Below are positions 1-30,546 of a stretch of 32,000 nucleotides of DNA, in pieces. Location of the stretch: assembly GCA_934246625.1 (NCBI GenBank), contig CAKQHZ010000001.1, positions 240,001 through 272,000 of the forward strand, read 5' to 3'. The notes below the pieces were generated by a model, which saw only the letters and a program-made list of their open reading frames with translations, made no database searches and was not told where the DNA came from. Position 1 is the first letter of the stretch, and every line of letters begins with the position of its first letter. The DNA comes from an uncultured Alphaproteobacteria bacterium (GTDB taxonomy: Bacteria > Pseudomonadota > Alphaproteobacteria > Rs-D84 > CACZYB01). A program made the position numbers and the translations under genes.

Positions 1-460
1 GTCGCATTCTCCAACCACCAGAAAAGTCAGATACTGGACGATTAAAATCTTCGTTTTTAAAACCTAATCCATTAAGTATGGTTGAAATTTTTGCCTCGGC
101 TTTATCACTATCTAAGACACGAAGTTCTTCATAAATTTCAGGCAATTCTTCGGGTGTTGCTGTTTCCAATTTTTTACGGGTGTTGATAAGCTCCTTATCC
201 TTACTTAACACAAAATCAATAATTGAAAGGTTGATGTCGTAAAATTCCTGTTCCACAAATGAAATTTTTTGATTATTCGAAAATATAACCTTGCCATCAG
301 TTGGTTCCAATTCCTTTTTAAGTATTTTAAAAAGTGTTGATTTTCCACAACCATTTAAACCAACAATACCGATTTTTTGATTATCAAAAATTTGGACTGA
401 GGCATTTTCAAGCAAAGTCCTTGATTGCATATAAACTGTTATATTTTCTATATTTATCAT
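1..460 (-). CDS. ABC-F family ATPase, N-terminal part (gene continues left of window)
   Basis: Own translation of the minus strand from the ATG at 458-460: MINIENITVYMQSRTLLENASVQIFDNQKIGIVGLNGCGKSTLFKILKKELEPTDG... It has Walker A GLNGCGKST and, at the window edge, FSGGWRMR, the ABC signature typical of ABC-F (Uup/YheS-like) proteins. It is absent from the ORF track because it is open at the edge. Confidence 0.8.
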   Translation of the reverse strand, partial: MINIENITVYMQSRTLLENASVQIFDNQKIGIVGLNGCGKSTLFKILKKELEPTDGKVIFSNNQKISFVEQEFYDINLSIIDFVLSKDKELINTRKKLETATPEELPEIYEELRVLDSDKAEAKISTILNGLGFKNEDFNRPVSDFSGGWRMR

Positions 461-569
461 AATAGGCTTTATGCTATCAAATAGGATTTTTTATTTCAAG
501 CAATATTATAAAAAGTTTTTCTCTTTTACAAGAAAAAATCAATGATATTTTATATTTGGCTACACGACA

Positions 570-778
570 AAGACTTAATGTATTTGATATTGGTGATAAA
601 ACGCATATGCAAAATATTTCAAAGGTCAAAGTTATTTAAATGTTGCAAATGTTAGCTTTGAACCAAAGTCCAGAAATAATTGGCATATCCATCACAAGGG
701 TGGACAAATCTTGCTTATTACTGGTAGAAATGGATATTACCAAGAATGGGGAAAGCCTGCTGTAAAATTAAAAAAGGG
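570..778 (+). pseudogene. Cupin-domain protein remnant, frameshifted and 3'-truncated
   Basis: From 600 the + strand reads NAYAKYFKGQSYLNVANVSFEPKSRNNWHIHHKGGQILLITGRNGYYQEWGKPAVKLKKG, a small-cupin core (NWHxH...GQIL...G.G). The preceding ...VFDIGDK is in a different frame. The expected C-terminal IP...HWHGA part is missing, and the frame runs into the first repeat of the adjacent array. Confidence 0.55.
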
Positions 779-922
779 AGTTACCTCCCTTGCGTATAAT
801 TAACAATATATATGGGGTGTGGGAAAGTAACACTTAAAAAAGGGAGTTACCTCCCTGTATTCACAGGCACCCTTTCAACAATAGGAGGGAAAGTAACACT
901 TAAAAAAGGGAGTTACCTCCCT
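755..922. CRISPR. CRISPR-like mini-array: two perfect 36-nt repeats plus one degenerate repeat, two 30-nt spacers
   Basis: GGGAAAGTAACACTTAAAAAAGGGAGTTACCTCCCT occurs at 821-856 and 887-922 (identical). Position 755-790 keeps only the last 23 nt (TTAAAAAAGGGAGTTACCTCCCT). The spacers 791-820 (tgcgtataattaacaatatatatggggtgt) and 857-886 (gtattcacaggcaccctttcaacaatagga) are each 30 nt and unrelated. The repeat contains the hairpin AGGGAG-TTAC-CTCCCT. Confidence 0.45.
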
Positions 923-1020
923 ATTAGAAGAAAAATATCCCTAATAATGTGTATTTCCACATAAATCATATTAAAAATTTTAAGAATTTCTAATACTTAC
1001 TTTTCATTATATTGCCGTTT

Positions 1021-2423
1021 TTATTTTTTACAATAATTTTCTTTTTTTGCATCTTCTGTAATTTCTTTTAATTTTATTTTCAAATCTTTATACATTTTAA
1101 AAACTATAACTTTAGTTTTTTTTAAATTTTTGTTTGGATTTTCATTAATATCTAAAATTATACTTTTAATTTTTTCTTTAAATCGTTTATGAACTGACAA
1201 AGATTTATCATTTGAAATTTTTATCGTTAAAATTTCTTTTTTAACTTTATCTTGTTTTTTATGTTTTTCAAATTCTGTTAAAAGTATTATATTATCTTTC
1301 TTTAAAAATAATGACATTAATGCTTTTAATAAATTTATTTTTAATTCTTTTGCGTTTTCAAAATTATTATCAAAAAAATCTAAAATTAACAGCAAATTGC
1401 TTCTAAATGTATCAAAAAATGACTTCGTAGCATCACTTTCGTTATAAAAAAATATTTTACCATGACTAATTTGATTTCTGATTTTTGTAATTTTTTCAGG
1501 AATAGATCTACACTTTATGTTTTCATAATTATAAACAAAATGTTTTTGTAGTATTTCACTTATTTTTATAAATAACATAAAAATTTTTTCTTTTTCTTCT
1601 AGATAAAATAATTTACGATATTGTGAATATTTTTTCTTTCCTAATAATGTTTTTAATATACTATCAATTTTATTTAAATTATATGAATTTATAAAATTTT
1701 GGCGTTCCAAACAATTAGATATTTTAATAGATTGTAAACTTTTTAAAAGCATACGATTGTCTTTTATTAAATCAATTTCTTTTTTATTATAATGATTTTC
1801 AAAAATAGTTTTTACATTTTTACTTTTTGTAGATAAAACAGATTTGAATAAATCTTCAATATTATAATCAAATTTTCCGTTATTTTTTTCACGTTCAAAC
1901 AATAATTTAATATCATTAATATAAACATTAGGAAGAAATAAAAACAAATTTTTTAAAGATTCTTCAACATTTAGTTCCTTCTCAATTCCAGAAACTGTAA
2001 TAGTTTCCTCTTTCGGTAAATTATTATGTTCAAAATAATGTCTTAATAAAGAAATTGATGCAATTTTATTTTTGAAATCTTTAAAATCTTTTATATAAAT
2101 AAGTTTCTTTTTAAATATAAAATAAAAGTATTTTTTAATTTCTGACTCTGTTTTGATAAAAATTCTTCTCTAAATACATCTGTCCCAAAAATATCAAAAG
2201 GATAACTTGGCAAGTTATTTGAGTTATTTTTTTCTTTTTTATACCATTTTACAACTTGTTCAAAAGAATTTCTTGCTTCGTTATCAAGCATTTCATACTT
2301 ATATTCATAATCTTTTGTTGCATCAAAAAAACTATGCAAAATTGCATTATCTAAAATATAAATATAAGATAATATTTTACTTCTTACTGATTTATTTGAA
2401 AAAATCTCCATAATAATTTCCAT
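1021..2423 (-). pseudogene. Protein of about 467 aa with two Rx4H (HEPN-type) motifs, split by one frameshift; compact Cas13-like or AbiF-like candidate
   Basis: Track ORFs 2091-2423 and 1021-1947 are on the same strand. The frame of the downstream ORF stays open upstream to about 2169 (own translation: ...KKYFYFIFKKKLIYIKDFKDFKNKIASISLLRHYFEHNNLPKEE...LFLFLPNVY...). It therefore overlaps the 110-aa ORF in another frame inside an A/T-rich run (about 2100-2165). The motifs are LLRHYFEH (about nt 2040) and KIRNQISHGK (about nt 1476). The track start at 1947 is a TTG. Confidence 0.5.
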
Positions 2424-2559
2424 TGATAAATAATGCTTTTATTTTAATCTGTATATATTATCCTTTCAAGAAAAAATAAACACGACCAAATGATGATGTT
2501 TAATAAAATATAAATTATTACTGGACCACTTAATCCTATTGCGAATCACTCACCTAAAA

Positions 2560-2901
2560 ATGATTATGAGGGATTTTGAAAGATTTTTACTTAAAAGACA
2601 TTGGAATAAAAAGCACATACCATTCATTGCATTTGCAGAAAAATGAGTATCTGAAGAATGGCATTTTCACTTGCTTTTCAATGGTGGTGAATTTACTCAT
2701 CAGGAATTAAAAATAGCAACCTACAGGATAATTTTGAAACAAAAACTACCCGCATACAGTCTGTAAATAGATGAAATAAAAGATGGTGTTGCAAAGGTTG
2801 AATGTTATACGATAAAGGAAATCAAAGTCACAGATTATAATCATTTTGACAGTGACAGGATTATACTTTCTCACAATTTATTTAATCTGGAGGTAAAATA
2901 A
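2560..2901 (+). pseudogene. Fragment of an HUH-type rolling-circle replication protein with in-frame stops
   Basis: Own translation: MIMRDFERFLLKRHWNKKHIPFIAFAEK*VSEEWHFHLLFNGGEFTHQELKIATYRIILKQKLPAYSL*IDEIKDGVAKVECYTIKEIKVTDYNHFDSDRIILSHNLFNLEVK*. It has an H-hydrophobic-H motif (HFHLL) but is interrupted by a TGA and a TAA. Confidence 0.3.
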
Positions 2902-3007
2902 TTCAATCCCACCTACCCAATATCAACGAAAAACAAAATTATAGTAAATTATAAACCAGAACTGTTTAATCGCAATTCTGGCTTGTTTATGTCATTCTAG
3001 ATAATAT

Positions 3008-3323
3008 TTAGTATTCTTCTGCTAACATAACTGTCATTACTCGTATTGTCTTTGTTATATCAGTTGGGTCGTTCGAATAATAACGAAAATCCCTATCATA
3101 ATAATCAATCTTCCACATTATCTTTTCACCATAATAAATAAAACTTCCATAATCGTGTTCATTATATGGGTCGTTCTTACTATTAAAATTATTAAAAGCT
3201 TTTCACTCCCTGCAAAATCTCATTTATTGCTTTTTGTCCTTTGCTGAAAACACCTCTGGTCAACATCACTTTCCCACCTAAAAGGCTTTTACGGAAGTTA
3301 TCGTTTAGTGTTTGAATATCCAT
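3008..3323 (-). pseudogene. DUF3768-family protein, frameshifted
   Basis: Own translation: MDIQTLNDNFRKSLLGGKVMLTRGVFSKGQKAINEILQGVKSF* then, in another frame, NNFNSKNDPYNEHDYGSFIYYGEKIMWKIDYYDRDFRYYSNDPTDITKTIRVMTVMLAEEY*. The NDP.gEHD.G.f...g.ki.WKIDYYD...T.RV.T.MLAEEY signature is the one I remember for DUF3768. Confidence 0.65.
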
Positions 3324-3574: not shown

Positions 3575-3865
3575 TTTAAAACCCTTTCATTTTTTGTTTT
3601 ACATAATAAATATGTCGTGTTGTTTTGAGAAAATACGCAAAAAATGTGAGAAAGATGGCTGTTTTTAGGTATTTTTTGAGTAGGTTTGAATTTTATTGAG
3701 AAAAATCAAACCTCGTGTCCACATGGACACAAGATTGAAATCAATAATTTGTTACCACAAAAACGCTAACAAATGATGCTAAACTGAAAATGTGTTTTAT
3801 CCGAGAATAAAAAAAGACACCTCATATCGCTAATAATACGAGGAGTCATAATTATGGATTACTTT

Positions 3866-6035: not shown

Positions 6036-6494
6036 TTATATTTGTTTAATTAAAAATTTTAGCCCTGAAACTTTTGTATCAAGCCAATTTTCATTAGATA
6101 ACGGATTTTTCTCTTCATTCTTACGAGAACTTCCATTATAATCACATTCCACTTCTGATAAAAATATACCAAAACAATAAGTATTATTAGATTTCAGTTT
6201 TTCTAAATTTTTACAATCGTCTATAAAACTACTTCTTTTATTTGTATTACCTTGATTAATTTTATCATATTTAAATTCAATATAATAATTAATATTATTC
6301 ACAACAAAATACATATCAACATCATGACCATTACGATGCTCTTCTGTATGAAGTTTTTGTAAATTTTGTTTTAATAAACCATCAGATACATAATTTCTGA
6401 AATCATTTTCATCTTCTGGGTGAAAATTAAGATTTTCAATTATTTTAATTAAAACGTTTAACATTGTTCTTCCTTGTTTATAATTAAACTTCAT
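6036..6494 (-). CDS. Hypothetical protein with a PD-(D/E)xK-like motif
   Basis: Track ORF of 152 aa. GHDVDMYFVV...NYYIEFKYDK resembles a D...E-x-K nuclease core. This is a weak, motif-only call. Confidence 0.35.
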   Translation of the reverse strand: MKFNYKQGRTMLNVLIKIIENLNFHPEDENDFRNYVSDGLLKQNLQKLHTEEHRNGHDVDMYFVVNNINYYIEFKYDKINQGNTNKRSSFIDDCKNLEKLKSNNTYCFGIFLSEVECDYNGSSRKNEEKNPLSNENWLDTKVSGLKFLIKQI

Positions 6495-6742: not shown

Positions 6743-7330
6743 ATGATTTATGGATATACCAGAGTTTCAACTGAACTACAAAACACCGAAAATCAAAAAC
6801 ACGAAATTCAAACCTTTGTAAAGTCGCAGAAAATCAAGATTGACAAGTGGGTGGATGAAATAATTTCTTCCCGAAAATCATTAAAAGAAAGGCAACTGGG
6901 TAAACTTTTAAAACATCTTAAAAAAGGGGATATTTTGATTGCTTCGGAACTTTCAAGACTTGGCAGAAATTTGCTTGAAGTTATGGGAATTTTGCAAAGC
7001 TGTTTGGAAAAAGATTGCCAAATATGGACCTTAAAAGAAAACTATAAACTTGGTGCAGATATACAGTCAAAAGTCCTTGCATTTGCGTTTTCGTTGGCTG
7101 CTGAAATTGAGCGACAACTTATTTCTCAACGGACAAGGGAGTCATTAAAAAGGATAAAAGATGAAGGTAAACATCTTGGCCGGCCATTTGGATTTAGTTA
7201 TAAAAAACTTGATGCAAAGAAAGGTAAAATCCAAGAATTACTTTCAAAAGATATTTCCAAAGCCGAAATTGCAAGGCTTCTAGATTGTTCTTGGATAACA
7301 CTTCACAGGTATATACGAAAGTCATTGTAA
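6743..7330 (+). CDS. Small serine recombinase (resolvase/invertase family)
   Basis: Track ORF of 195 aa. The N-terminus MIYGYTRVSTELQNTENQ carries the catalytic Ser in the YxRVST context. It also has ELSRLGRN and a C-terminal HTH (KAEIARLLDCSWITLHRYI). Confidence 0.9.
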   Translation: MIYGYTRVSTELQNTENQKHEIQTFVKSQKIKIDKWVDEIISSRKSLKERQLGKLLKHLKKGDILIASELSRLGRNLLEVMGILQSCLEKDCQIWTLKENYKLGADIQSKVLAFAFSLAAEIERQLISQRTRESLKRIKDEGKHLGRPFGFSYKKLDAKKGKIQELLSKDISKAEIARLLDCSWITLHRYIRKSL

Positions 7331-7646: not shown

Positions 7647-10238
7647 CTAATATTTCGATAATACTGTAATTATCTCCTGTTTTATTTTCTGTGGAAAATC
7701 GTAATTTATCCAATCTGGATTGTTATTAAACCAAGACAAGCATTGTTCCTGAGTTAAGTTATCACTTGTCATGTATTCAAATATATAGGATACTGCCGTA
7801 CGAGAAAAACCTAAATATAACAATGATAACTGTGTTTTTTGACTAACACCGAATTCCAAGAAAACTGAAAAATCTTGAATTTCTTGAACTAAATCATTTC
7901 TATTAATACTCGTCAAATAATATTTCAATACATCTGAATAGCATTTAAGATATTTTGGGGCTGTATATCTTGCAAATTTTTCTATTAATTCCATTGTTTC
8001 CCTGATCAATGTATTTGTATTTAGTGAATCAGAATAATTCCTTGATTTTATATAGTTAATTCTGTTTGTTATAATTCTCTTTAATGGATACCCTCTCATC
8101 CAATTCACTACTATAATTGAGCAACTATATAACGAACGACTTGAGTAATAAATTCGAGTTAAATGATTATTGATTCTTTGAAACGCTTTGTTATAGATAC
8201 CAACAGCATTTTCACTAGCAGGATCGCATAGTAATAGCTCCTCAATATTCTTTTTTTTATTTTTATTGCGTTCTATAAAATAATTATACAGTCTAATTAT
8301 ATGCATAGAATTTATGCCTGGATTATTTTCTATAATATCCAAAGGGAAGGGTAAATTTTGATAAATATTTGCAATCTCGCTTTCTATCTCATCAATGTTA
8401 GGAAAGAAATTACTCCATTTATATTGTTTTATTGTCTTATATCTTCCATATTGTGCCACTAAATATGACACAAACTGATCAAATAAATGATTAGGCTGTG
8501 CGTTTATATCTTGACATTTTATATAGTTTAAAAAACTTGTTGTCTTAAACTCTTCATTATCGATAAATTTCCTAATGTAGTATTTCTGTCTTTTCTTTGG
8601 AGCTTGTCCATCCGTCCAGATATTTTTATCGTTGGGATCAATACAGATTATATTACCTTGAAATTCAGTTCCCCATCGTCCTGCTCGTCCCGCTAAATTC
8701 CAAAAATCAGCATTTGACATTAACTGTTGTTTCCCTTTTTTAGGGCCTCGCATAAATATACTTCTACACGACAAATTAACACCTTCAACCAATGTAGAGG
8801 TACAAACTAAATGTGTAATAATATTTTCATTGAATAATCGTTCTATTTCTGCTTTTATTAAAATAGGCATATTTCCATAATGAAAAGCTACACCACGTTT
8901 TAGAACTTTACATAGAACATATTCTTCATGGATAGTTTTCTTACATAAATCAATTAATGAATTTAGTGCTTCATCGTTTTTATTGTTATCTTCACCCAAC
9001 AAATCACATATTAACTGAGCAATCTTTTCAGCATCTGCAGCACCATTTACATATATAATATTACCTTTAGCAATTATATTTTGATTATGGGTTAATGCAT
9101 CGACCATATAAGCAATTCTTTTTTGATCAGAATTGGGGGATGATTTAAGAGAAATATTATTCAAACAATATTCTTCATTACCACTTATCAGCTTCAAAAC
9201 CCATTTCTTAGATGAATGAGGCTGTTGTTCTACCCACAGAATGTTCTGATTAACCGTCAGTTCTTCACCTTTGATACAATGTGTTTGTTTTTTCTCATCT
9301 ATATCTTCAAGTAATCGTTCTGGATTAGCAGTAAATGGGCTAACAAAAACTAATTTAAGATTACTATTTTCAAATATTCCCCATTCTATAATTTGTTGCA
9401 ATAAAAGTCCACGATTATCATCACCTATCTTATAGGCTTCGTCAATAATCATTGCAAATATATTTAATTCAAAATTCAACGAAGAAAGTAATAGATAAAA
9501 ACGTTCTTGCGTAAATACGAAAATATTTGATTTATTCCAATCTAAAATATCATTTATTGGCATAGATGTCACATTGACTTTTTCTTCCAGAGCATTATCG
9601 TTTATTAGTTTTTTAAAATCTTCTTCTAATTCATATATTAAAGCTCGCGTAGGAACAATATATACTATATTTACTTTGTTATTTTCTTTTATTTGATCGA
9701 TAATCCATTGTTTTACTATAAATGTTTTACCTGCAGCTGTTGGAGCTGTAACACTCAAATATTTGTAACATTCCAAACTTCTCCAAAAATTATTTTGAAA
9801 TTTATTCGCAAATATTTTCTTTCCGTTGTTTGTGTCTATAAGATTTTCTTTTCTACATCTTGTCCAAAACATTTTAGATGAAAAATTTAGACGGTTTTCT
9901 ATATGTCCTTCTATAAGGTTTCTTTTTTCTGCTAAATTAATGGCCGGAATGTTAGATAAAGAATTAAGAATAATGGTCGCCATATCTCTATGTTCAGGTG
10001 ATACAGCACAAGATATACATGTCTGGGTAATTCTTAAAACCTTATCAAAATTAGAAACATCTTTTGCTAAAATACTTGCACATAGTAGCAAATATCCCCA
10101 ATCTATATCTGCTTGCGTATCTTTTTCCTTAATAAATATGCCATCGAACTGTTCTTCAACAGATAAAAGGAGAACCTTTAAATACATATTACTAAAGTAT
10201 TGGTTATTATTTATCCATTCCAATAAAGTTTCTTGCAT
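7647..10238 (-). CDS. hamB: Hachiman HamB, SF2 (Ski2-like) helicase
   Basis: Track ORF of 863 aa. Helicase motifs: TAPTAAGKTF (I), IIDEAYKIGD (II), VAFHYGNMP, TSTLVEGVNL (V) and NLAGRAGRWG (VI). It starts 3 nt after the stop of the DUF1837-like gene. Confidence 0.8.
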   Translation of the reverse strand: MQETLLEWINNNQYFSNMYLKVLLLSVEEQFDGIFIKEKDTQADIDWGYLLLCASILAKDVSNFDKVLRITQTCISCAVSPEHRDMATIILNSLSNIPAINLAEKRNLIEGHIENRLNFSSKMFWTRCRKENLIDTNNGKKIFANKFQNNFWRSLECYKYLSVTAPTAAGKTFIVKQWIIDQIKENNKVNIVYIVPTRALIYELEEDFKKLINDNALEEKVNVTSMPINDILDWNKSNIFVFTQERFYLLLSSLNFELNIFAMIIDEAYKIGDDNRGLLLQQIIEWGIFENSNLKLVFVSPFTANPERLLEDIDEKKQTHCIKGEELTVNQNILWVEQQPHSSKKWVLKLISGNEEYCLNNISLKSSPNSDQKRIAYMVDALTHNQNIIAKGNIIYVNGAADAEKIAQLICDLLGEDNNKNDEALNSLIDLCKKTIHEEYVLCKVLKRGVAFHYGNMPILIKAEIERLFNENIITHLVCTSTLVEGVNLSCRSIFMRGPKKGKQQLMSNADFWNLAGRAGRWGTEFQGNIICIDPNDKNIWTDGQAPKKRQKYYIRKFIDNEEFKTTSFLNYIKCQDINAQPNHLFDQFVSYLVAQYGRYKTIKQYKWSNFFPNIDEIESEIANIYQNLPFPLDIIENNPGINSMHIIRLYNYFIERNKNKKKNIEELLLCDPASENAVGIYNKAFQRINNHLTRIYYSSRSLYSCSIIVVNWMRGYPLKRIITNRINYIKSRNYSDSLNTNTLIRETMELIEKFARYTAPKYLKCYSDVLKYYLTSINRNDLVQEIQDFSVFLEFGVSQKTQLSLLYLGFSRTAVSYIFEYMTSDNLTQEQCLSWFNNNPDWINYDFPQKIKQEIITVLSKY

Positions 10239-10241
10239 GTT

Positions 10242-11210
10242 TTATCCTTTATCTGGAAAAATTCCCAAACATTTATGAAATTCTGTTCTTAATTCATTTA
10301 CAGATTTAAAAGGAATACAGAAGAAATGTATAACAAAAGAGTCTAATCCTTTCATTTTTAGTTTATTTTGAATAACTATATTCAATTTCGGTATTTCTTT
10401 TCGAATTTTCTTTTCTACATCTGAAATAGTTTCTTGATTGGGAGATTGAGGATAATAATTATCTTGTTCAAAGCCAACAAAAGCTATGGCTCTTATTTCG
10501 AGTTTATTAAATTTAGGACTATCTCTATCTAAATACTCCTTAAGTACATCTTCCATTTTTTTATCATTAAGATCTATAAACTGCTTTAATAGAATAAAAT
10601 CCCTATTATCTGCGGACAAGATACCACCATTCGCATTAAGTAAGGTATTTAAGCTATTTAAGCAATCTTCAACTGCGGTAGGAAAATCTTTATAAACTTT
10701 TGATTCTCCCCAATGTAAAGCTAAATTATTATCCTCTGTTAATCCAAGATATACTCCATCTGCACCATGGAAGTACATATTATGATTTGTTTTTAAATTC
10801 ATTTTACATATCACTTGGGGAATTTTTAAAAATTTTTCTGCTAATACAAATAAAATTAGTTCACCTAATTCACCTGACTTAACACTATCGACAAATGTTT
10901 CCTGTGCTTCTTGCCGTAATTTCATCATATTTCTGGTTGTTGAATTTTGGTTATCCCTATTTTTTGCTTCAACAATACGACTTCTTGGAATTACATAATC
11001 AATTATATCACAAACCACACAATCCACAAAATCTTTTGTTCGATCCCGTCCGTTGCCATCTAATTCAATACAATGCCAATAAGATATTGTTTCTGTTTCA
11101 TCTATCTTTTTTTCTTTTTCTACAGTGTGTAAGAAAGCTTCATAGCTATTGAAATCACCCCTAGCTAATCTATTTAATATACTCAATAAAAAATCTTCGT
11201 TCTCAGACAT
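10242..11210 (-). CDS. hamA: Hachiman HamA, DUF1837-like nuclease
   Basis: Track ORF of 322 aa. SGELGELILFVLAEKFL..., KMNLKTNHNMYFHGADGVYLG and LALHWGESKVY (D...ExK) match my memory of the DUF1837 signature. It is immediately upstream of the helicase. Confidence 0.75.
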   Translation of the reverse strand: MSENEDFLLSILNRLARGDFNSYEAFLHTVEKEKKIDETETISYWHCIELDGNGRDRTKDFVDCVVCDIIDYVIPRSRIVEAKNRDNQNSTTRNMMKLRQEAQETFVDSVKSGELGELILFVLAEKFLKIPQVICKMNLKTNHNMYFHGADGVYLGLTEDNNLALHWGESKVYKDFPTAVEDCLNSLNTLLNANGGILSADNRDFILLKQFIDLNDKKMEDVLKEYLDRDSPKFNKLEIRAIAFVGFEQDNYYPQSPNQETISDVEKKIRKEIPKLNIVIQNKLKMKGLDSFVIHFFCIPFKSVNELRTEFHKCLGIFPDKG

Positions 11211-13386: not shown

Positions 13387-13440
13387 TTTTAGTGGTGCCG
13401 GCACACGGACTCGAACCGCGGACCTGATGATTACAAATCA
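13387..13440. repeat. attL: 54-bp direct repeat containing the displaced 3' 48 nt of tRNA-Thr (13393-13440, minus)
   Basis: ttttagtggtgccggcacacggactcgaaccgcggacctgatgattacaaatca is identical to 30610-30663. Confidence 0.9.
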
Positions 13441-13686: not shown

Positions 13687-14715
13687 ATGGAAAATAAAGG
13701 AAATATTATAATATACAAAGATGAAAATGGCACAGTTAAGGCTAATGCTTTATTTGCCAATGAAACTATATGGCTTACACAAAAAGGAATGAGTGAACTT
13801 TTTGATATAGACCCTTCTGGTATAAGCAAACATATACAAAATATATTTAATGACGGAGAATTGGCAGAAAACACGACTCTTGCAAAATTTGCAACTGTCG
13901 TAAATCGAGGTTTTCGTGGTCCAATAGAAGAGGAACTTGATTACTATAATCTTGATATGATTATTGCTGTCGGATATAGAGTAAATTCCAAAAAAGCAAC
14001 TGCTTTTCGTATTTGGGCGACAAATGTTTTAAAAGAATTTATTACAAAAGGCTTTATCCTTGATGATGAACGCTTAAAAAATGGAAATATGTTCGGTAAA
14101 GATTATTTTAGAGAATTATTAGAACGTATTCGTGATATTAGGATTAGTGAAAAAAGACTATATCAACAATTAAAAGATATTTACGCCCTTTCCGCTGATT
14201 ATACAAAAGATAATAAAGATGCCTTACGATTTTTTGCAACAGTCCAAAATAAAGTGCATTTTGCAATTACTGGAAAAACTGCTCCTGAAATTATATATGA
14301 AAGAGCAGACTCTGAAAAATCTAATATGGGACTTACATCTTGGAAAAATTCACCAAACGGAAAAATCTCCAAATCAGATATTGGTATTGCTAAAAATTAT
14401 CTTAATGATTCCGAATTACAAGATTTAAGGGGAATAATAAATATGTTCCTTGATTATGCAGAAATGCAAACAAGAAATAACAAACTAATTTATATGAAAG
14501 ATTGGGAAAAACGTCTTGACGACTTTATAAAATTTAATGAAAAGCAAGTTTTATCAAATGCCGGAAAGATATCTCGTATGACAGCACTAAGAAAAGCCTT
14601 TTCTGAATATGATAAATATAAAGAATTATTAAGAATAGAAGAAAAGGAACAAGCTGAAAAAGAAATAGAAACAGATATAAAAGAATTAAATGAAATTTTA
14701 GTGAAGAATAATTAG
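13687..14715 (+). CDS. RhuM-family protein
   Basis: Track ORF of 342 aa. IIIYKDENGTVKANALFANETIWLTQKGMSELFDI...YYNLDMIIAVGYRVNSKKATAFRIWATNVLKEFITKGFILDDERLKNG matches the RhuM signature as I remember it. Confidence 0.8.
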   Translation: MENKGNIIIYKDENGTVKANALFANETIWLTQKGMSELFDIDPSGISKHIQNIFNDGELAENTTLAKFATVVNRGFRGPIEEELDYYNLDMIIAVGYRVNSKKATAFRIWATNVLKEFITKGFILDDERLKNGNMFGKDYFRELLERIRDIRISEKRLYQQLKDIYALSADYTKDNKDALRFFATVQNKVHFAITGKTAPEIIYERADSEKSNMGLTSWKNSPNGKISKSDIGIAKNYLNDSELQDLRGIINMFLDYAEMQTRNNKLIYMKDWEKRLDDFIKFNEKQVLSNAGKISRMTALRKAFSEYDKYKELLRIEEKEQAEKEIETDIKELNEILVKNN

Positions 14716-14772: not shown

Positions 14773-15933
14773 ATGTCAAAACAATTTAACTTCACCAAAA
14801 AAGATATTGATGCATTGCCAGTGCCAAACAAAGGTTTTGCCACCTACTCTGACACAACGGAAAAAGGGTTGAAACTCTACATTACTCCAACAAGGACAAA
14901 GACTTTCTTTATTCGTAAATTTATAAATGGGCGGGATGAACGGCTTATCATAGGTCCGTATCCGGATTTGACTATTTCACAGGCGAGGGAGAAAGCAAGA
15001 ATTTTAAAGGGGACTATTGCAAACGGCATCAACCCAGCGGAGGAGAAAAGAAAACTTCGCCGTGATATGACCGTTGCGGAATTTTTTGATTACTACATTA
15101 CAAATTACTCCACAAAGAAAAAGCGCCCTAATTCCATCAGGTCGGAAAAAACTTTGTATAAAAATCATATTGCAGATTTTCTCGGGTATAAAAAGATGAC
15201 CTTGGTGCAAAAGGCGGACATTGAACGGATTTTAAAGCCCTTGGTAAATCAAGGCAACTTTGCCACAGCAAACAGGATACTTGCCCTGTTTTCTGGTATG
15301 TATAACAGAGCGATTGAATGGGGTTATCCCGATGAAAATCCGACAAAGGGGATAAAAAAGCAACGCGAAAAATCACGGGAGAGATTTTTGCAACCTGATG
15401 AATTGCCACGATTTTTTGAGATGTTAAACTCTGTTAAAAATGAGAATTTTAAAAACTATATATTGCTTTCACTTTTTACGGGGCAACGAAAAAATAATGT
15501 GCTTTCAATGAAATGGGAGCAGATAGATTTGTCGCTTGGGATTTGGTTTATACCACACACGAAAAATGGAGAAAGTTTGAATTGTGCGTTGAGTGATGAG
15601 GCAATAAAACTTCTCTCTGATATAAAACAAAATACAACCTCCGAGTGGGTTTTGCCAAGTGAAACTTCCTCCAGCGGGCATTATGAAGAGCCGAAACGGG
15701 CTTGGAGAACCTTGCTTAAAAATGCAGGGATTGAAAATTTACATCTTCATGATTTAAGGCGAACCCTTGGAAGCTATCAGGCGATAGGCGGTTCAAGTTT
15801 ACAAATAATTGGTCAATCTTTGGGACATAAATCCTTGCAATCTACACAAATATACGCCCGCCTTATCAAAGCTCCCGTCCGCCAAAGCACAAACATGGCC
15901 GTCGCGAAAATTTTGGAGTATGCGAAGAGGTAG
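14773..15933 (+). CDS. int: Tyrosine recombinase, P4-type island integrase
   Basis: Track ORF of 386 aa. The N-terminal arm-binding region is GLKLYITPTRTKTFFIRKFINGRDERLIIGPYPDLTISQAREKA. Catalytic residues are in LFTGQRKNNV, HLHDLRRT and LGHKSLQSTQIYA. Confidence 0.95.
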   Translation: MSKQFNFTKKDIDALPVPNKGFATYSDTTEKGLKLYITPTRTKTFFIRKFINGRDERLIIGPYPDLTISQAREKARILKGTIANGINPAEEKRKLRRDMTVAEFFDYYITNYSTKKKRPNSIRSEKTLYKNHIADFLGYKKMTLVQKADIERILKPLVNQGNFATANRILALFSGMYNRAIEWGYPDENPTKGIKKQREKSRERFLQPDELPRFFEMLNSVKNENFKNYILLSLFTGQRKNNVLSMKWEQIDLSLGIWFIPHTKNGESLNCALSDEAIKLLSDIKQNTTSEWVLPSETSSSGHYEEPKRAWRTLLKNAGIENLHLHDLRRTLGSYQAIGGSSLQIIGQSLGHKSLQSTQIYARLIKAPVRQSTNMAVAKILEYAKR

Positions 15934-20277: not shown

Positions 20278-22086
20278 TTATGATTCTTTAATCTTATTCA
20301 ACCAAAATAAATACCATTTATCCTGAATATGTTCTTTAATTTTATTCTCAATACTAAGAGTATTCAATTTGTTATTTTCTAAACAAAAATTATATAGAAT
20401 TAAAAATTTAGATAAAGGATAACCCTTTTTATGTTTATTTTTAGGAAATAAATATTCTTTTAAATAATGTATATTTTTACATGATCTAATTTCATCCATA
20501 TTATAAATTACAGAAGATGCATCATTATAGTCACGTTGTAAAATGAAACTACGTAAATCATTGTATTCATCTTTTAAGTCTGGTAATAAACGAAAAAGAA
20601 TAGATGAAACTTGTCTAGTTAAAAATGAATTTTTGATCCAAAGATTTCGATATTTATTTATATGTTCATAGATAGATTTTGGTGTTTCATATTTAGCAGC
20701 AAACCATAAGTAACTATAAAAATTAAATTCTTTATCCTTAATAGTTAATGATTTTAAATATTTAGATATATAATTTATATTTTCAATATCCACTCTTGAA
20801 TATCCAATATTCCAATCTATAATTAAAGCAACCAATAAAAATAACGTTATATCATCATATCTTGTAATATTTATCAATGATTGAAAAATTTTATATGTTT
20901 TTTTAGTATATCCTAATTTATATAAATATTGACATACATTAGTTCTCAGATCTGAATATTCTTCAAAAATTCTTGGTAAATATTTTAAGATTTTAGTAAA
21001 ATTGTTATTTCCAGCAATAGTCAAAAATCTTTTTAAAACCTTATCAAAATTTTTATATTGTTTATTCTTGTTCCAATGTCTTCTAAAATATTTCATAAAC
21101 TCTTTTTCTTTTGGGGGATTTTTGTCAAATATATTTAATTGAATATTTTCGTCAAATAAAAAATGTCTTTTTGCCTCAGAAGCATCAAGAATCTTTGTTT
21201 TTGACATATTAAGAGACAATCCTCTACTTTTTAAAACATCAGATATATTGCTTAAAATTGACTTAGCCTCCCTTATATCATCAATACCAATAACAATATC
21301 ATCCATCCATCTTACAAAATTTTCATTTATTTGATATTTTAATAAGTAATCAATTTCAAAAAGAAAAGAATGTGCTAATAGTCTAATTGCTTCTAAATTA
21401 ATTGTAGGCATTCCAATTGATTGATTGGGTAAATAATCTGGTTTCCATGATAAATCTTCAATTATATTAAAAATTAAATCTAATAAAACTTCGTCACATT
21501 TGATATACCCAGAAACTACACTTCTTAACTCATTTAACCGTATACTATCAAAATAATTTGATAAATCTGTTATAATAATATATTTTTTTGTTTTTGTAAA
21601 TTGAAGAATTTCATTTTGATATATTTTCCATTGTTCAAACCAATCATTATAATCCGTATTTATTTCATGAGGAAGTTTAATAGAAGAACTTTTATCTCTA
21701 GAATAATAAGCATGATTTGAAGGTGCCTGTTTTTCTAAATCATTACAAAAAGGTTCTATAAGAGCTTGTAAAATAAGAGTGTCACTAGGAGATAAAATAA
21801 TCATATGGCGACAAATGCCAAATTTTTTCTCTAATGTATATATAATTGGTATTTGCGATTTATATTGACCAGAAATAATTTGTTCATTAATTTTACTTGT
21901 ATTATAATCTATTCTTCTATGAAAATCATAAAAATCATGTAAATCAAGAATACTCATACTCCTTACTTGACTCTTAACTTTATGTTTCCATAATGTTTTT
22001 AAAGTATCCTTTTTAAATGGATTTTCTAACTGTTTTTGCCTTTTTTTAAATCTTAACGTTATAGGTTTAGACATTTTAAAACTCAT
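20278..22086 (-). CDS. Reverse transcriptase of the UG/Abi (defence-associated) type with a long helical C-terminal extension
   Basis: Track ORF of 602 aa. RT motifs: ILSPSDTLILQALIEPF (2), YIIITDLSNYFDSI (A), FVRWMDDIVIG (C) and LSLNMSKTKI (D/E). About 270 aa of helical C-terminus follow, including EIRSCKNIH (R-x5-H). Confidence 0.8.
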   Translation of the reverse strand: MSFKMSKPITLRFKKRQKQLENPFKKDTLKTLWKHKVKSQVRSMSILDLHDFYDFHRRIDYNTSKINEQIISGQYKSQIPIIYTLEKKFGICRHMIILSPSDTLILQALIEPFCNDLEKQAPSNHAYYSRDKSSSIKLPHEINTDYNDWFEQWKIYQNEILQFTKTKKYIIITDLSNYFDSIRLNELRSVVSGYIKCDEVLLDLIFNIIEDLSWKPDYLPNQSIGMPTINLEAIRLLAHSFLFEIDYLLKYQINENFVRWMDDIVIGIDDIREAKSILSNISDVLKSRGLSLNMSKTKILDASEAKRHFLFDENIQLNIFDKNPPKEKEFMKYFRRHWNKNKQYKNFDKVLKRFLTIAGNNNFTKILKYLPRIFEEYSDLRTNVCQYLYKLGYTKKTYKIFQSLINITRYDDITLFLLVALIIDWNIGYSRVDIENINYISKYLKSLTIKDKEFNFYSYLWFAAKYETPKSIYEHINKYRNLWIKNSFLTRQVSSILFRLLPDLKDEYNDLRSFILQRDYNDASSVIYNMDEIRSCKNIHYLKEYLFPKNKHKKGYPLSKFLILYNFCLENNKLNTLSIENKIKEHIQDKWYLFWLNKIKES

Positions 22087-22156: not shown

Positions 22157-25100
22157 TTATCCAAACAATCTATCCAGTTCTTCTTCTAAAATACCTTCCT
22201 TAACAAGAGGAAGTGTATCAACTTGTTTCAAATTATGTTTTTGAATGAAATTTTCATTATCGAAACCAAGGATATATGATATAGCAATACGATAAATTAT
22301 TTCTGTCGGTGCTAATCCATAAACTTGCTTTTCAAAAATATGCTTTAATCTATCTTTTGAATCAGGATAAATCTTTATCAATTTAGGATTATTATATAAT
22401 CGTTTTACAATTTCAGTGATATATAATCCTGATTTCATATATAAATCAATAAATGTTTTATCTGGATCTGTAAAGCAATCTGGACATTCTTTTTCTAAAT
22501 TATCTACCATTTCTTTTACTACTTTTTTAGGCGTAAAGATTTGGTTTGTTTTTTGTGGTGGAATATAATCAAAAATATCCTCAGTGTTATTTTCATCAAA
22601 ATAATTGGAAAGTTTAGTTTTCAAATTTAAGAATTCCTTAATGGAATCATTGAAAACAATAGGATCAAATAGATGTCCATCAAAATGCTCCATTTTTCCT
22701 GTTTTTTCATCTTTATAATCTCCACCATCACGTAAAAACTTAAATTCAGCAAGAGAAATACTTGTAACTTCTTTAAATACTTCATCTGGTATAATTGTAT
22801 CAAAGTTTTCTAATGTTGTGTTTTCATTACCATAAGCCATTAAAAATGAAGGTATTGTTCTTGAAAAACCTCTTAAATAGTCTCGAACTGAATCTTCTAT
22901 GGCTGTTTTTTCTTTTTGCCTTTTATCTGTTTCTACTCTTTCAATAATTGTATTTCCTGTATTTTGAATAAGTTCAGGAAGTTTATTCTTCAATTCTGAA
23001 ATAAATGTTGTTTTGTTTTCAGCAACTTTCAAATCATATAGTTCATTAATTTTATCTTTTTCAAAATCAGATGCTGTTTTTAATTCTTTTTTTCGTTCTA
23101 ATTCTGTCTGATTTTGTAAGATTTTATAATTACCATATTCTTTATCAAAAACCTGATTTGTTGTATTTAATATTGTTTGAGTAATTTTCTTTAAAGAGCT
23201 GGTTGTTACAGCATTTTTGTAGTTTGTTTTTACTGTATCAACAAAAGTTTCTTCAACTTTAGCTTTAAATGTATCTTTTAATTCTTTTAATTTCTCATCA
23301 TCTTGTTCAGGTTGGTTATTTTGCAATTCATTTACAGTTTCAACTAAATCTTTATTAATACTTTCATAAATCTTATCTCCAAATATTTCATTCGCTTGAC
23401 CAATAATAAAGTTTTGTGAAAGTTCTACTTCTCCATCTTCATTTAAAGATAAATCATCTTTTGTATTTTGATTAATTGGTAAAGGTTCTTTTGTCTTTTC
23501 AAATTTTTTTATAATATCAACAACTTCTTGTGGTGCATTGAATATGTTTCCAATATTCTGGAATAAGAAATTACTCATAAAACCACGTTGAACGACTTCT
23601 TGTGCATGGATTTTACGAGGAATAGATAATACCTGTTCAGCCTTAAGAAGTATCATTTCACCATCCTCATCTTCACCATAAACAGGGAAAAAGTTTAAAA
23701 GTTCTCTAACATTTTGTTTCCTTGTATCACTATCACCTTGTCCACTTGTTGTATTTATACTTAAATCGTTAGCAAATTTTTCAACAATTTCCAAAGTTCT
23801 TGCTGGATCAAAATCAAATACATAAGCATTTTCTTTTCTAAAGAATTGTCTATCTTTATGGAATATACAAGGATTTTGCGACCTGAAAGCTGTTTGCATA
23901 TATAATGCTGGACTTTTAACATTACCAAGCATTAAAACTGCTGTCCATTCAGGAATTGTAATTCCAGTAGTTAATTGTCCTACAGATAGAGTAATTGTCT
24001 TTTCATAATTCTTTATGCCATTAACAACTTTATTAAATGCATTTTCACGTTCTTCGTCTTCATTAAGTTTACCATCCCCAGCGGCAACAATAATTTCATA
24101 ATTTTTAAATATAGGGTGATTTTTTAATTTTTTTGCCAAAGCTTTAACACTACCAACTCTATCTAAAAACCAGAATGTATGATTAAGTTCATCTCTTAAT
24201 TCTTGAGTTGAAAATGGAAATTTAGTTTTTATAGTTAATGCATCCAAAAATTTATCAACGGCTTCATCATACTTAAAACTTCCATTTTCATTTGTTGAAA
24301 AGAATTCATTCAAATCAAAAGCATATTCTCTAATATCATCATCAGATAAATTGCATCCCTGTTTTACCTTGTCTTCAATAATATCTGACATCTTATATGT
24401 ATAAAGATTTAATTGAGGTAAGTTTTGATAAGGATTTTCTTCTTCGTTTGATGTATCCCAATTTTTTTTTGCATTTTGTTCATCAGCATAAGTCCAATTA
24501 AATATAGCTTTCTCTTCAAATTTATTATTTGCTAAAGCTTTAAATGGCGTTCCAGATAAATGAAGTGTAAATTTTCTTTTTATTTGATCAAAGGCAATGT
24601 CAGTATGATATGTATCAACACCTTCATGTGCTTCATCAATTACTAATAAATCCCAGTCTAAATCTTTAATCTCTTTAAGTTTATCATATTTTCCACCAAA
24701 GTAGATTGACCCTTTTAAATCTTGTAATGATACAAATTCAATACATCCTTTATGATTTCCATCGTTAAGTTTATTTAAGTATTCTTCTCTTGATAGAACA
24801 TATTCTTTACTTTTCAAAGTACTAACTTGACTAACAAAATAATATCCTGAATTGGTACCTAAAAACCTTTCATAATCAGCATACCAAGAATTAGCAATAG
24901 CTGGTCTATTCGTTACAATTAAAACTTTTTTTGCATTTATCTGTTTGCATAAGTCATAAGTTGATAATGTTTTACCAAATCTAGGTTTTGCATTCCATAA
25001 AAATTCTGGTTCATCATCTTTATGACTTTCAAAATATTCTTTTGTTTGAGAAACAGCATTAAATTGCTCATTTCTAAGTTTGTATTCTATTACAGGTTTT

Positions 25101-25456
25101 GTTTCTAAAATTCCTCTGTTTTCTTTAAATTCATAAAATTTTTCTTTTGAATCTTTTGGGGATATTTTAAACCATTCTGTATCCGGTTTTCTTTCAATAT
25201 TGTTTTTCTTAAGGTAAGCGTGAAAATCTGTATCATGGAAAACCTCGCCAGAACCATCCTCATATATAGCATTAGATTTCCATTCCAATACAAATTTTAC
25301 ATCTGCAGTTTGAGTTTGCTGTTTTATACGAGTTTCGACATCTTGTTCTGTAAAACCAATCTTTGTCCATCCATCATGTTCTTTAATCTCAGGAGTTGTA
25401 TATGCATAACACATAGGGACAATTTTCTTTAATGTTTTAATATTTAGTTTTACCAT
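22157..25456 (-). CDS. GIY-YIG/T5orf172-like nuclease domain + SF2 (Res-like) helicase + C-terminal methyltransferase-N-half-like region
   Basis: The track ORF runs to 25492. I prefer the ATG at 25454-25456 (MVKLNIK...), which has GGAG about 9-12 nt upstream and abuts the upstream stop. N-terminus: WTKIGFTEQDVETRIKQ...HAYLKK...TEWFKIS. Helicase: KPRFGKTLST (I), LLVIDEAHEG (II), LSGTPF (III) and LYMQTAFRSQNP (VI-like). C-terminus: NQIFTPKKVVKEMVDNL...KTFIDLYMKSGLYITEIV...KQVYGLAPTEIIYRIA. Confidence 0.75.
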   Translation of the reverse strand: MVKLNIKTLKKIVPMCYAYTTPEIKEHDGWTKIGFTEQDVETRIKQQTQTADVKFVLEWKSNAIYEDGSGEVFHDTDFHAYLKKNNIERKPDTEWFKISPKDSKEKFYEFKENRGILETKPVIEYKLRNEQFNAVSQTKEYFESHKDDEPEFLWNAKPRFGKTLSTYDLCKQINAKKVLIVTNRPAIANSWYADYERFLGTNSGYYFVSQVSTLKSKEYVLSREEYLNKLNDGNHKGCIEFVSLQDLKGSIYFGGKYDKLKEIKDLDWDLLVIDEAHEGVDTYHTDIAFDQIKRKFTLHLSGTPFKALANNKFEEKAIFNWTYADEQNAKKNWDTSNEEENPYQNLPQLNLYTYKMSDIIEDKVKQGCNLSDDDIREYAFDLNEFFSTNENGSFKYDEAVDKFLDALTIKTKFPFSTQELRDELNHTFWFLDRVGSVKALAKKLKNHPIFKNYEIIVAAGDGKLNEDEERENAFNKVVNGIKNYEKTITLSVGQLTTGITIPEWTAVLMLGNVKSPALYMQTAFRSQNPCIFHKDRQFFRKENAYVFDFDPARTLEIVEKFANDLSINTTSGQGDSDTRKQNVRELLNFFPVYGEDEDGEMILLKAEQVLSIPRKIHAQEVVQRGFMSNFLFQNIGNIFNAPQEVVDIIKKFEKTKEPLPINQNTKDDLSLNEDGEVELSQNFIIGQANEIFGDKIYESINKDLVETVNELQNNQPEQDDEKLKELKDTFKAKVEETFVDTVKTNYKNAVTTSSLKKITQTILNTTNQVFDKEYGNYKILQNQTELERKKELKTASDFEKDKINELYDLKVAENKTTFISELKNKLPELIQNTGNTIIERVETDKRQKEKTAIEDSVRDYLRGFSRTIPSFLMAYGNENTTLENFDTIIPDEVFKEVTSISLAEFKFLRDGGDYKDEKTGKMEHFDGHLFDPIVFNDSIKEFLNLKTKLSNYFDENNTEDIFDYIPPQKTNQIFTPKKVVKEMVDNLEKECPDCFTDPDKTFIDLYMKSGLYITEIVKRLYNNPKLIKIYPDSKDRLKHIFEKQVYGLAPTEIIYRIAISYILGFDNENFIQKHNLKQVDTLPLVKEGILEEELDRLFG

Positions 25457-25457
25457 A

Positions 25458-25838
25458 TTACACCATCTCCTTTTTATCCAATTGAATTCCATTTACTTTT
25501 GTTTTTAATTGTTCAATTAGTTTATATTTATGTTTTTTGATATAATATTTACGTAAAAATAAAGAAATAATTTCTATAAATAATCCAATAAAATAAATAT
25601 ACACGTTATCTATATATAAAGTTTCAAAAATATTAGAAATGGTAAAAGATAAGATACCAACACATTTTAAATATCTTTCTTTTAAATATTCTTCTATCAA
25701 ATTTGTATTACAATCTAAATATGTTGAACTTTTTGCTAAAATATGCTCATCTGAATCTAAATTACATATTATTAATATAATACCAAATATTTGCAAAATA
25801 AGTTTTAATACAGTAGATAAACTTAAATAAATAAACAT
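25458..25838 (-). CDS. Small multi-pass membrane protein inside the methylase/helicase gene train
   Basis: Track ORF of 126 aa. The hydrophobic segments are LSTVLKLILQIFGIILIICNL, CVGILSFTISNIF and VYIYFIGLFIEIISLFL. GGAG lies upstream of the ATG. Confidence 0.5.
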   Translation of the reverse strand: MFIYLSLSTVLKLILQIFGIILIICNLDSDEHILAKSSTYLDCNTNLIEEYLKERYLKCVGILSFTISNIFETLYIDNVYIYFIGLFIEIISLFLRKYYIKKHKYKLIEQLKTKVNGIQLDKKEMV

Positions 25839-25853: not shown

Positions 25854-26843
25854 TTAGACAGTTTTTTGTTCAATATACTTTATTTCTTCTAATGTAAGAT
25901 TATATTTTTCATATAAATCTTTGTTGTTCCATTTCTTTGAAAAATCTTGGATAGGTACAAATTTATAAACATTTCTTGCTGCATTTTGTGATTTTTTTAT
26001 TTGAGATATTAAGTATTTATATAGATTAGTATTCATATATGAAATAACATTTTCACATATTTCTTTACTATCAAATGGTCCCACAACTAAATATGTTTCA
26101 TTACAAGCTGTTCCTGGTGCTCCATAGAATGGTAATCCATTAAATTTTGCAGAAATTTCTCCTGCTTTTGATACATAAACTTTATGCTGATCAATCCATT
26201 CTTTTTTAGAAATAATTTTATTTCTATCTATATATGCAAACTTTTCATCTGAACGATCTCGAGAAAATCTATAAATTTTAATGGAATTTTTTTCTTTTTT
26301 ATTTGAAAAATAATTTTTATAATTTCCAACTTTTCCATTAGCAAAAGGAGAATATGTTGAAACTAAATCCATAAATGATGCAAAATCTTTAGAATATATT
26401 CCAACTTTAGTTACTATTTCATCAGCTTTTGGATCTCTTATAAAAAATTCTGTTCCATGTTCAGCCATGTTCCTAATATCTGTTTTCACTATATCGCCAT
26501 CTATATAGGTATATTTTGTATGTGCTGTAACATTTTTATCATATATAAAGTATGATACACCACCAGCTAAGGAAATATTTGTTTGAAAAACCTTATTTGC
26601 ATCAGTATAATCAACCATAGATGAAATATGATTATTTTTTAACATAAATTTTCTAAATTCATCTAAACCAGTTCCACCTGTCATCCATAAACTTGGTGTA
26701 ATCATAGAAACATAATTAGCTTTTAAATTAATTGCACTTTGTACAAAATGATGATAAACAGGATTTGCTTGAGAAATAGATCCTGAATTATTTGCAACTA
26801 ATTCCTGATAAGGTGGGTTTCCAATTATAACATCAAACTTCAT
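25854..26843 (-). CDS. N6-adenine DNA methyltransferase, C-terminal half (motif IV NPPY plus putative target-recognition domain)
   Basis: Track ORF of 329 aa that begins MKFDVIIGNPPYQ, so it lacks the AdoMet-binding motifs X and I. AAAGGAG lies 7 nt upstream of the ATG. It overlaps the upstream ORF in ATGA. Confidence 0.8.
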   Translation of the reverse strand: MKFDVIIGNPPYQELVANNSGSISQANPVYHHFVQSAINLKANYVSMITPSLWMTGGTGLDEFRKFMLKNNHISSMVDYTDANKVFQTNISLAGGVSYFIYDKNVTAHTKYTYIDGDIVKTDIRNMAEHGTEFFIRDPKADEIVTKVGIYSKDFASFMDLVSTYSPFANGKVGNYKNYFSNKKEKNSIKIYRFSRDRSDEKFAYIDRNKIISKKEWIDQHKVYVSKAGEISAKFNGLPFYGAPGTACNETYLVVGPFDSKEICENVISYMNTNLYKYLISQIKKSQNAARNVYKFVPIQDFSKKWNNKDLYEKYNLTLEEIKYIEQKTV

Positions 26844-30408: not shown

Positions 30409-30526
30409 AATATACCCTTCTATTTTAAAATAGATACAGCTACTATTCTACTTCTTATATCCAGCTCTATTTTAAATATAATTCCACAATAATCAAATCT
30501 TTTTCCCCTGCAAATTTCTGCAAAAA

Positions 30527-30546
30527 TTCGGCAATGATTCGGCAAT
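30527..30546 (+). promoter_or_regulatory. Candidate integrase arm-type binding sites (right arm)
   Basis: TTCGGCAAT occurs at 30527-30535 and 30538-30546, in the same orientation as the three copies near attL. Confidence 0.45.

Follow-up and report, generated by a model that had tools for sequence, protein, structure and literature searches.

Near the start of the 32,000-nt stretch of contig CAKQHZ010000001.1 analysed here (the window), a minus-strand gene for a compact, Cas13an-like protein with two HEPN-type RNase motifs stands beside a small CRISPR-like array. The array (window 755-922) lies downstream of the gene and holds two identical 36-nt repeats (GGGAAAGTAACACTTAAAAAAGGGAGTTACCTCCCT on the + strand), a terminal remnant that keeps the last 23 nt of the repeat in + strand terms (768-790), and two unrelated 30-nt spacers, giving a unit period of exactly 66 nt. 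A gap of 98 nt separates it from the stop codon of the minus-strand open reading frame (ORF). This anatomy and the gap are as described in the original prediction, which had been made from the letters alone. Matches to the repeat numbered zero in 100 shuffles, and no further copy was found within the 32-kb window. Read along the gene strand, each repeat is AGGGAG-GTAA-CTCCCT-T6-AAGTGTTACTTTCCC, and the resemblance of this hairpin and T-run to a terminator, which had also been noticed, is borne out by scoring, with 3 of 3 repeat copies scoring as terminator-like sites versus 0.2 expected. Coordinates of all features are collected in Table 1.

The effector gene is interrupted in the window. From ATG 2411, the likely start codon because all homologues begin M[EK]IFSN, the unrepaired frame encodes only 106 aa before it meets a stop codon, TAA, at 2093..2091. 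Comparison with the uninterrupted orthologue of locus L001, which is 98.6 % identical and differs by 20 substitutions and one 4-nt gap, assigns this stop to a deletion with the context TTTATTTA[TTTT]TATA. With the four bases restored, an uninterrupted protein of 464 aa is obtained, slightly shorter than the ~467 aa first estimated. A single frameshift in an A/T run at 2100-2165 had been proposed; there is indeed one disruption, but it removes 4 nt at the 2096/2095 boundary and is no 1-nt slip. The two Rx4H motifs, expected about 190 aa apart, are separated by 188 aa (RHYFEH to RNQISH), and across an 11-sequence family R125, H130 and H318 are invariant and R313 nearly so. The gene region has a G+C content of 17.6 % versus ~27 % for the genome. 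Promoter-like sites showed no enrichment over shuffles in this AT-rich region, and the one upstream of the gene is a consensus match only.

In the window the 4-nt deletion has inactivated the effector, leaving a recent pseudogene beside a residual array of two spacers, in keeping with the decay suspected at the outset; biologically this copy is a relic and not an active system. We consider it unlikely that the gap is an assembly or sequencing error and that the gene is intact and the locus functional in the organism. The gap is admittedly the only disruption in 1391 nt and falls within a low-complexity TTTA/T run, the two full repeats match each other perfectly, and L001 has one spacer fewer than the window; however, a typical homopolymer error affects a single base, not four. 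The additional unit is leader-proximal and fits either a gain at that end in the window or the loss of a unit in L001.

Relatives of the protein are rare, amounting to ~12 protein clusters among billions of sequences. Close clusters number only 3 in 5.8 billion clustered proteins, all of them intact and 464-469 aa long, with identities to the window protein of 95 % (P0001), 82 % (P0002) and 63 % (P0003). An exhaustive HMMER search of 1.84 billion representative proteins yielded 10 matches (E up to 0.001) and added seven more distant full-length relatives (P0004-P0010 and P0012) of 465-599 aa. P0013 was added by a second, word-indexed homologue search, which returned few members because its candidate list was saturated by low-complexity words. 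Protein-pattern scans of GTDB genomes revealed no relative; patterns from alignment A3 gave 592 hits, none confirmed, and alignment A5 was too divergent to yield any. Among the intact close orthologues the ratio of nonsynonymous to synonymous substitution rates (dN/dS) is 0.18-0.27, and the gene is therefore under purifying selection where it is whole.

The association of gene and array is not peculiar to the window. A co-oriented array, with spacers that differ from locus to locus, follows the gene in all 11 loci that offer at least 250 nt after the stop codon, starting 60-240 nt downstream and comprising 2 to at least 8 repeats in the relatives. In a twelfth locus (L012) a repeat begins just at the contig end, and L013, which has no DNA downstream of the gene, falls outside this count. 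The 66-nt period is exact in 10 of the 11 loci and is broken in L003 by spacers of 25 and 31 nt. All 28 spacers collected are different, 25 of them being exactly 30 nt long; the spacer shared by the window and L001 is counted here in its two slightly differing versions. The terminal repeats of the window, L001, L003, L014 and L016 have lost the tail and retain the hairpin with the beginning of the T-rich segment. No Cas1 or Cas2 domain and no other cas gene was detected among the 27 window ORFs scanned with Pfam (between 1 and 32000) or in the precomputed Pfam hits of any relative's flank, and those hits indicated no recurrent neighbouring gene in the flanks.

These comparisons bear on a sceptical reading in which the repeats are intrinsic terminators arranged in tandem after an unrelated gene for a HEPN toxin, with a periodicity due to coincidence. 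All three units of the window score as terminators, and the same hairpin with its T-run also occurs as isolated terminators in unrelated genomes. Nonetheless, the 36+30 spacing recurs in all 11 examinable loci, exactly 66 nt in 10, with proteins only 22-33 % identical to P0001; a 15-nt tail after the T-run is conserved inside each array; the spacers are unique and the leader conserved; and the repeats are homologous to those of published Cas13an loci, as detailed below. The comparative data effectively refute the terminator-only reading, to which we assign practically no chance. Nor does the repeat behave as a dispersed repetitive extragenic palindromic (REP) or terminator element, a possibility raised in the original prediction: the pattern GGGAGGNAACTCCCYTTTTNNNGTGT was found singly at just four sites, two in 596 Gb of genomes and two in JGI metagenomes, and all four are isolated chance terminators with no array and no related gene.

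The organization of the locus resembles that of Cas13an, whose published representatives are proteins of 429-577 aa with two HEPN domains, encoded beside 36-nt repeats and 30-nt spacers, with neither cas1 nor cas2 present in cis (Yoon et al. 2024, Science; PMC12165695). The family described here shares the compact size (464 aa here and 465-599 aa in the wider clade), two Rx4H motifs with equal order and flanks (N-terminal FRSxxL, RxYLEH, LxLLLP, IRNxIxH), and an adjoining array of the same geometry with no cas genes seen nearby. When a family profile (alignment A5, which excludes the window sequence) was compared with 12 published Cas13an sequences, hhalign returned 98.6 % with an E-value of 6.4e-16 over 313 columns, and hmmsearch recovered Cas13an8 (E 3.7e-9), Cas13an4 (1.3e-6), Cas13an5 (1e-4) and Cas13an7 (2e-3). 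The RNA component is related as well, in that the repeats of L011, L015 and L009 match published Cas13an2/3 repeats at positions 13-36 in the published CRISPR RNA (crRNA) sense (p<=0.007 versus shuffles), the shared part being CC-ATTTTT-A-GG...TGTCTAT..AC. Overall, we are confident, short of certainty, in assigning the locus to a deep-branching, stand-alone type VI system of the Cas13an family, pseudogenised in the window, for which RNase activity and anti-phage function would follow from homology. The suggestion of a Cas13an-sized, dual-HEPN effector beside a CRISPR-like array was thus well founded, given the profile match, the 36/30 geometry and the missing cas1 and cas2.

Several observations weigh against this assignment. 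Identity to published Cas13an proteins is only ~17-19 %, and a database-scale HMMER search started from the clade did not reach the published sequences, which therefore places the family on a separate, deep branch; the published sequences were moreover compared over 400 aa, with the C-terminal third left out. Array length is very small, 2-5 repeats in many cases. Comparison of all 28 spacers with phage records, and of six with plasmid records, gave no credible match. The repeats also differ in architecture: those of the clade carry a 6-bp G/C hairpin with a stable tetraloop at the extreme 5' end, beside the preceding spacer, followed by a U-run, and every repeat is terminator-like because of this arrangement. 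In contrast, published Cas13an repeats form an end-to-end hairpin with the U-run in the loop, whereas in the clade the conserved C-rich arm pairs with an upstream G-rich arm. Further differences from published Cas13an are an inverted degenerate repeat in the leader of many clade loci, hosts that appear to be uncultured, metagenome-only bacteria (one member is labelled Alphaproteobacteria, and the window genome is low in G+C), and the frameshift of the window copy.

The AlphaFold2 model, built from an 11-sequence alignment, is confident and mostly helical, with a predicted local distance difference test (pLDDT) score of 80.9 and a predicted template modelling (pTM) score of 0.83, and the size of the protein suggests that the large REC lobe is absent. 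Foldseek searches with the model returned nothing significant from the PDB (top match Cas13d, E 0.12) or from the BFVD viral library, which agrees with the published remark that Foldseek and hidden Markov models do not link Cas13an to other Cas13s (PMC12165695). Scans of the window protein and 11 family members against Pfam, PADLOC and NCBIfam gave nothing meaningful and no Cas13 model match, and PDB sequence searches with three profiles gave nothing save one spurious match (E 0.12). The protein thus matches no Cas13a, Cas13b, Cas13c or Cas13d profile and, at 464 aa, lies well below the 775-1400 aa of these canonical groups. Type VI-B systems (Cas13b/Cas13X-Y) resemble the locus in the polarity inferred for its crRNA, spacer 5' and repeat 3', and in that many of their loci lack cas1 and cas2. 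They differ in a protein of 775-1200 aa with large insertions and in another repeat, and PADLOC returned no Cas13 match here.

AbiF, reported as the ancestor of Cas13, is neutralised by a 36-37-nt RNA motif, and the crRNA of miniature Cas13e reportedly acts as an antitoxin as well (PMC12737573; PMC12373285). These precedents invite the question of whether the locus might instead be an abortive-infection or type III toxin-antitoxin module comparable to AbiF or ToxIN, in which a HEPN RNase toxin would be held in check mainly by the repeat RNA and the 'spacers' would be mere linkers. Tiny arrays without linked adaptation genes, the absence of any spacer target among those searched, a hairpin and U-run in every unit, and the reported descent of Cas13 from AbiF, with an RNA that neutralises the toxin there and reportedly in Cas13e, would all suit such a module. 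Linkers, however, would not be expected to be precisely 30 nt long and wholly different between relatives while repeats and leader are conserved. Two loci that are 98.6 % identical also differ by one unit at the leader end. The homologous Cas13an proteins have moreover been found experimentally to be guide-dependent (PMC12165695), and neither the Abi_2 Pfam family nor the RF03085 RNA is matched. The antitoxin repeats of known type III systems are contiguous and situated upstream of the toxin gene. We regard this alternative as quite improbable. The roles of crRNA guide and antitoxin are compatible, and an added antitoxin role like that reported for miniature Cas13e is possible.

AbiF and AbiD (Abi_2) proteins share with the locus a defence-related HEPN RNase with an Rx4H motif and a cis-encoded structured RNA of ~36 nt, and they are the proposed ancestors of Cas13. 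They differ in having one HEPN domain and acting as homodimers, and the AbiF RNA has one or two motifs without variable spacers. The AbiF-like alternative of the original prediction is not supported: the window protein and 11 family members gave no Abi_2 match at E<=1, window 1-3200 matched no Rfam family at E<=1, the abiF RNA motif RF03085 included, and HEPN motifs number two in the protein instead of one. The PDB sequence search was likewise without a match, though PbAbiF is in the PDB. ToxIN resembles the locus in pairing a tandem repeat RNA of ~36 nt with an adjacent gene for an RNase that processes it. ToxI repeats, by contrast, precede the toxin gene and are contiguous, without spacers, and ToxN is not known as a HEPN protein. 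The miniature Cas13e of Zilberzwige-Tal et al. 2025 (Cell) is probably the same lineage as Cas13an.

The strand from which the array is read was assessed from repeats taken from 12 arrays. These were aligned manually on their loops, because MAFFT mis-registered three of them, and at the six inner stem positions 71 of 72 cases are paired versus 56-78 % in shifted controls, with two-sided compensatory changes at 4 of the 6 pairs (for example GGGAG/CTCCC, GGAGGG/CCCTCC, GGCGGG/CCCGCC and GGTGGC/GCCAC). Of the 12 repeats, 8 have a GNRA loop when read on the gene strand, one has UUCG and one CUUG, and the complements are not special tetraloops, which therefore marks the gene strand as the RNA strand. 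In all loci but one the stem is followed by a run of 4-6 T and then by a tail of ~15 nt that is conserved inside each array. An end-to-end fold like that of the published repeats can form in the window's clade (-12.4 kcal/mol) but lacks conservation in the family as a whole and was rejected as a common structure. The 98-nt leader between stop codon and first repeat is conserved in four loci of the window's clade despite unrelated spacers (alignment A4).

We infer that the crRNA takes the form spacer-5'/repeat-3' and is transcribed on the gene (minus) strand, because of the stem covariation, the GNRA and UUCG loops, the conserved leader and the published crRNA polarity. The original prediction had suggested the + strand, which would make the array convergent with the gene and its crRNA a 5'-handle molecule as in Cas12a, Cas13a and Cas13d. 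A self-complementary stem does form on either strand, the opposite-strand folds being only 0.3-3.8 kcal/mol weaker, and terminator-like repeats on the gene strand could hinder transcription through the array. Set against this are the special tetraloops confined to the gene strand, the alignment of the 3' two-thirds of several repeats with Cas13an2/3 in the published crRNA sense, which is that of the gene strand, and the spacer-before-repeat order of published Cas13an crRNAs (PMC12165695). The conserved leader with its promoter-like site also lies on the gene side, and the degenerate terminal repeat is gene-distal in 5 loci. Transcription from the + strand is therefore very improbable, and a gene-strand 3' handle is favoured over the 5' handle first proposed.

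The leader contains a second element of interest, an 'anti-repeat' that resembles an inverted, degenerate copy of the repeat. Taken alone, the block in the window is not significant (p 0.34), but the homologous blocks in L002 and L003 are (p 0.006 and 0.027). An inverted degenerate repeat lies just upstream of the first repeat in at least five loci, L009 (26/29, p<0.002) and L018, L016, L002 and L003 (p 0.002-0.027). Leader and first repeat together fold into one long imperfect hairpin in 4 of the 5 loci tested, with z-scores of -2 to -3.7. In L009 the anti-repeat is followed by its own hairpin and T-run. On the opposite strand the anti-repeat itself has the look of a solo repeat-like element.

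Neither terminator-like repeats nor a leader anti-repeat has, as far as could be checked, been reported from any type VI system, Cas13an included. We raise, as a tentative and on the whole doubtful proposal, that the clade is a distinct miniature type VI subtype with its own crRNA maturation, in which the repeats would double as partial intrinsic terminators and the inverted repeat of the leader would pair with the first repeat. If so, terminator-like repeats would set the 3' ends of crRNAs and favour leader-proximal spacers, and the anti-repeat could be an RNA akin to a trans-activating crRNA (tracrRNA), an autoregulatory leader RNA, or a means of silencing the spacer-less first repeat. The variant repeat architecture and the leader anti-repeat would raise the standing of the locus if they are functional.

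By homology with Cas13an, an intact system of this clade would transcribe the array on the gene strand from the leader promoter or by read-through, and each crRNA would consist of a spacer with the downstream repeat as its 3' handle. As in published Cas13an, where one HEPN site serves both crRNA processing and target cleavage (PMC12165695), a single composite HEPN site would trim the pre-crRNA, cleave RNA of phages or plasmids that is complementary to the spacer, and act as a collateral RNase. Spacers may be acquired in trans or only rarely, because no cas1 or cas2 is linked. Self-targets were not found in the window or the related loci. An IMG/VR search with four 20-21-mers from the window spacers was also made, and a 22-nt exact match to window spacer 2 lies in L023 at 6743-6765 (IMGVR_UViG_3300009149_006183), inside an ORF of >2400 aa on the opposite strand. 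Its polarity is the one needed if a gene-strand crRNA targets RNA; however, none of the 7 bases nearest the repeat matches, and a match of this kind is expected by chance.

No RNA-guided RNase smaller than Cas13an is known, and Cas13an is a proposed link between AbiF toxins and Cas13, with only ~15 sequences described in the literature covered. The locus adds to it a separate and very divergent branch of ~12 protein clusters, and the presence of arrays in all examinable members of this branch gives added support to an ancestral link between effector and array in the Cas13an lineage. The intact orthologues of 464-469 aa, P0001-P0003, with their different guide scaffold, might be developed into compact tools for targeting RNA. 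Light could be shed on how repeat RNAs evolved from antitoxin-like RNAs by the leader anti-repeat and by the change of partner arm in the hairpin, where the C-rich arm and the U-run are conserved.

Table 1. Features of the cas13an-like locus and its surroundings, in window coordinates unless another locus is named
Feature	Position	Strand	Remarks
cas13an-like effector gene, pseudogenised	1021..2411	-	464 aa after repair of the 4-nt deletion
4-nt deletion site	2092..2099	-	between 2096 and 2095, in a TTTA/T-rich microsatellite; the gene's sole disruption
HEPN1 catalytic motif RHYFEH (Rx4H)	2026..2043	-	aligns with RNYLEH/RHYLEH of published Cas13an
HEPN2 catalytic motif RNQISH (Rx4H)	1462..1479	-	aligns with IRNxIAH of published Cas13an
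Promoter-like site upstream of effector gene	2441..2469	-	TTGAAA-17-TAAAAT, 10/12 consensus matches
Leader between stop codon and repeat 1	923..1020	-	promoter-like TAGAAA-16-TATGAT at 992..965
Leader 'anti-repeat'	938..959	-	GGAAATACACATTATTAGGGAT; resembles an inverted, degenerate repeat copy
Repeat 1, leader-proximal	887..922	-	gene strand reads AGGGAGGTAACTCCCTTTTTTAAGTGTTACTTTCCC
Spacer 1, leader-proximal	857..886	-	TCCTATTGTTGAAAGGGTGCCTGTGAATAC; missing in the otherwise near-identical locus L001
Repeat 2	821..856	-	same sequence as repeat 1
Spacer 2, distal	791..820	-	ACACCCCATATATATTGTTAATTATACGCA; common to window and L001, 2 mismatches in the best ungapped register
Terminal degenerate repeat	755..790	-	hairpin and T-run (768-790) retained, 3' tail swapped for other sequence
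Anti-repeat in relatives	L009 ~3779-3808; L016 ~6437-6471; L018 ~2375-2401; L002 and L003 leaders		
Hachiman system	7647-11210	-	HamA PF08878, E 6e-55, and DEAD/ResIII helicase
RhuM	13687-14715		
Integrase	14773-15933		
Reverse transcriptase	20278-22086		
ResIII/T5orf172 helicase	22157-25492		
Eco57I-type methylase	25854-26843		
tRNA-Thr region, noted together with the 54-nt stretch at 13387-13440	30616-30691		

The cas13an-like module of the window occupies one end of ~30 kb of island DNA, bounded by an ABC-ATPase gene (1-460) on one side and by tRNA-Thr and a lytic transglycosylase gene (30616-31990) on the other, and thus stands at the edge of a tRNA-Thr-linked defence island. Besides the systems and enzymes listed in Table 1, the island contains two resolvases. 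A 54-nt duplicate of tRNA-Thr-adjacent sequence is present at 13387-13440 and is identical to sequence beside the cas13an-like gene in L003, where the module lies directly beside tRNA-Thr; another part of that intergenic region of L003 corresponds to window 30484-30742, tRNA-Thr included. This arrangement suggests tandem genomic islands that may have integrated at tRNA-Thr.

Remnants of other genes flank the module on both sides. Upstream of the cas13an-like gene, window 2560-2900 (+ strand) carries a degraded rolling-circle Rep-like gene with in-frame stops, a WHFHLLF HUH-type motif and a weak match to REP_ORF2-G2P (E 1e-3), which is conserved in L001. At the other side, the terminal degenerate repeat adjoins a truncated, frameshifted cupin-like pseudogene (window ~560-790, + strand; ...NNWHIHHKGGQILLITGRNGYYQEWGKPAVKLKKG) whose Pfam match to Cupin_7 is no better than E 0.06. 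Cupin-like gene and array may have been joined through microhomology at the 13 nt TTAAAAAAGGGAG, and the junction is identical in L001.

Four relatives show individual peculiarities. P0008 (L015) has SNNISH in place of RNNISH at HEPN2 and retains a five-repeat array, and P0007 (L014), with a two-repeat array, is called as a gene of 471 aa with an overlapping 102-aa ORF at its end; both may be further decaying or variant members. In L007 (3902-6914) a cas13an-like gene and a five-repeat array lie between two ORFs of the uracil-DNA glycosylase (UDG) family (182 aa, and 161 aa with a weak match), and this module could have inserted into, or beside, a duplicated UDG gene. The first and eighth spacers of L009 (3996-4025 and 4458-4487) are identical, as is the repeat that follows each, and probably reflect an assembly loop at the contig end, not a true duplicate.

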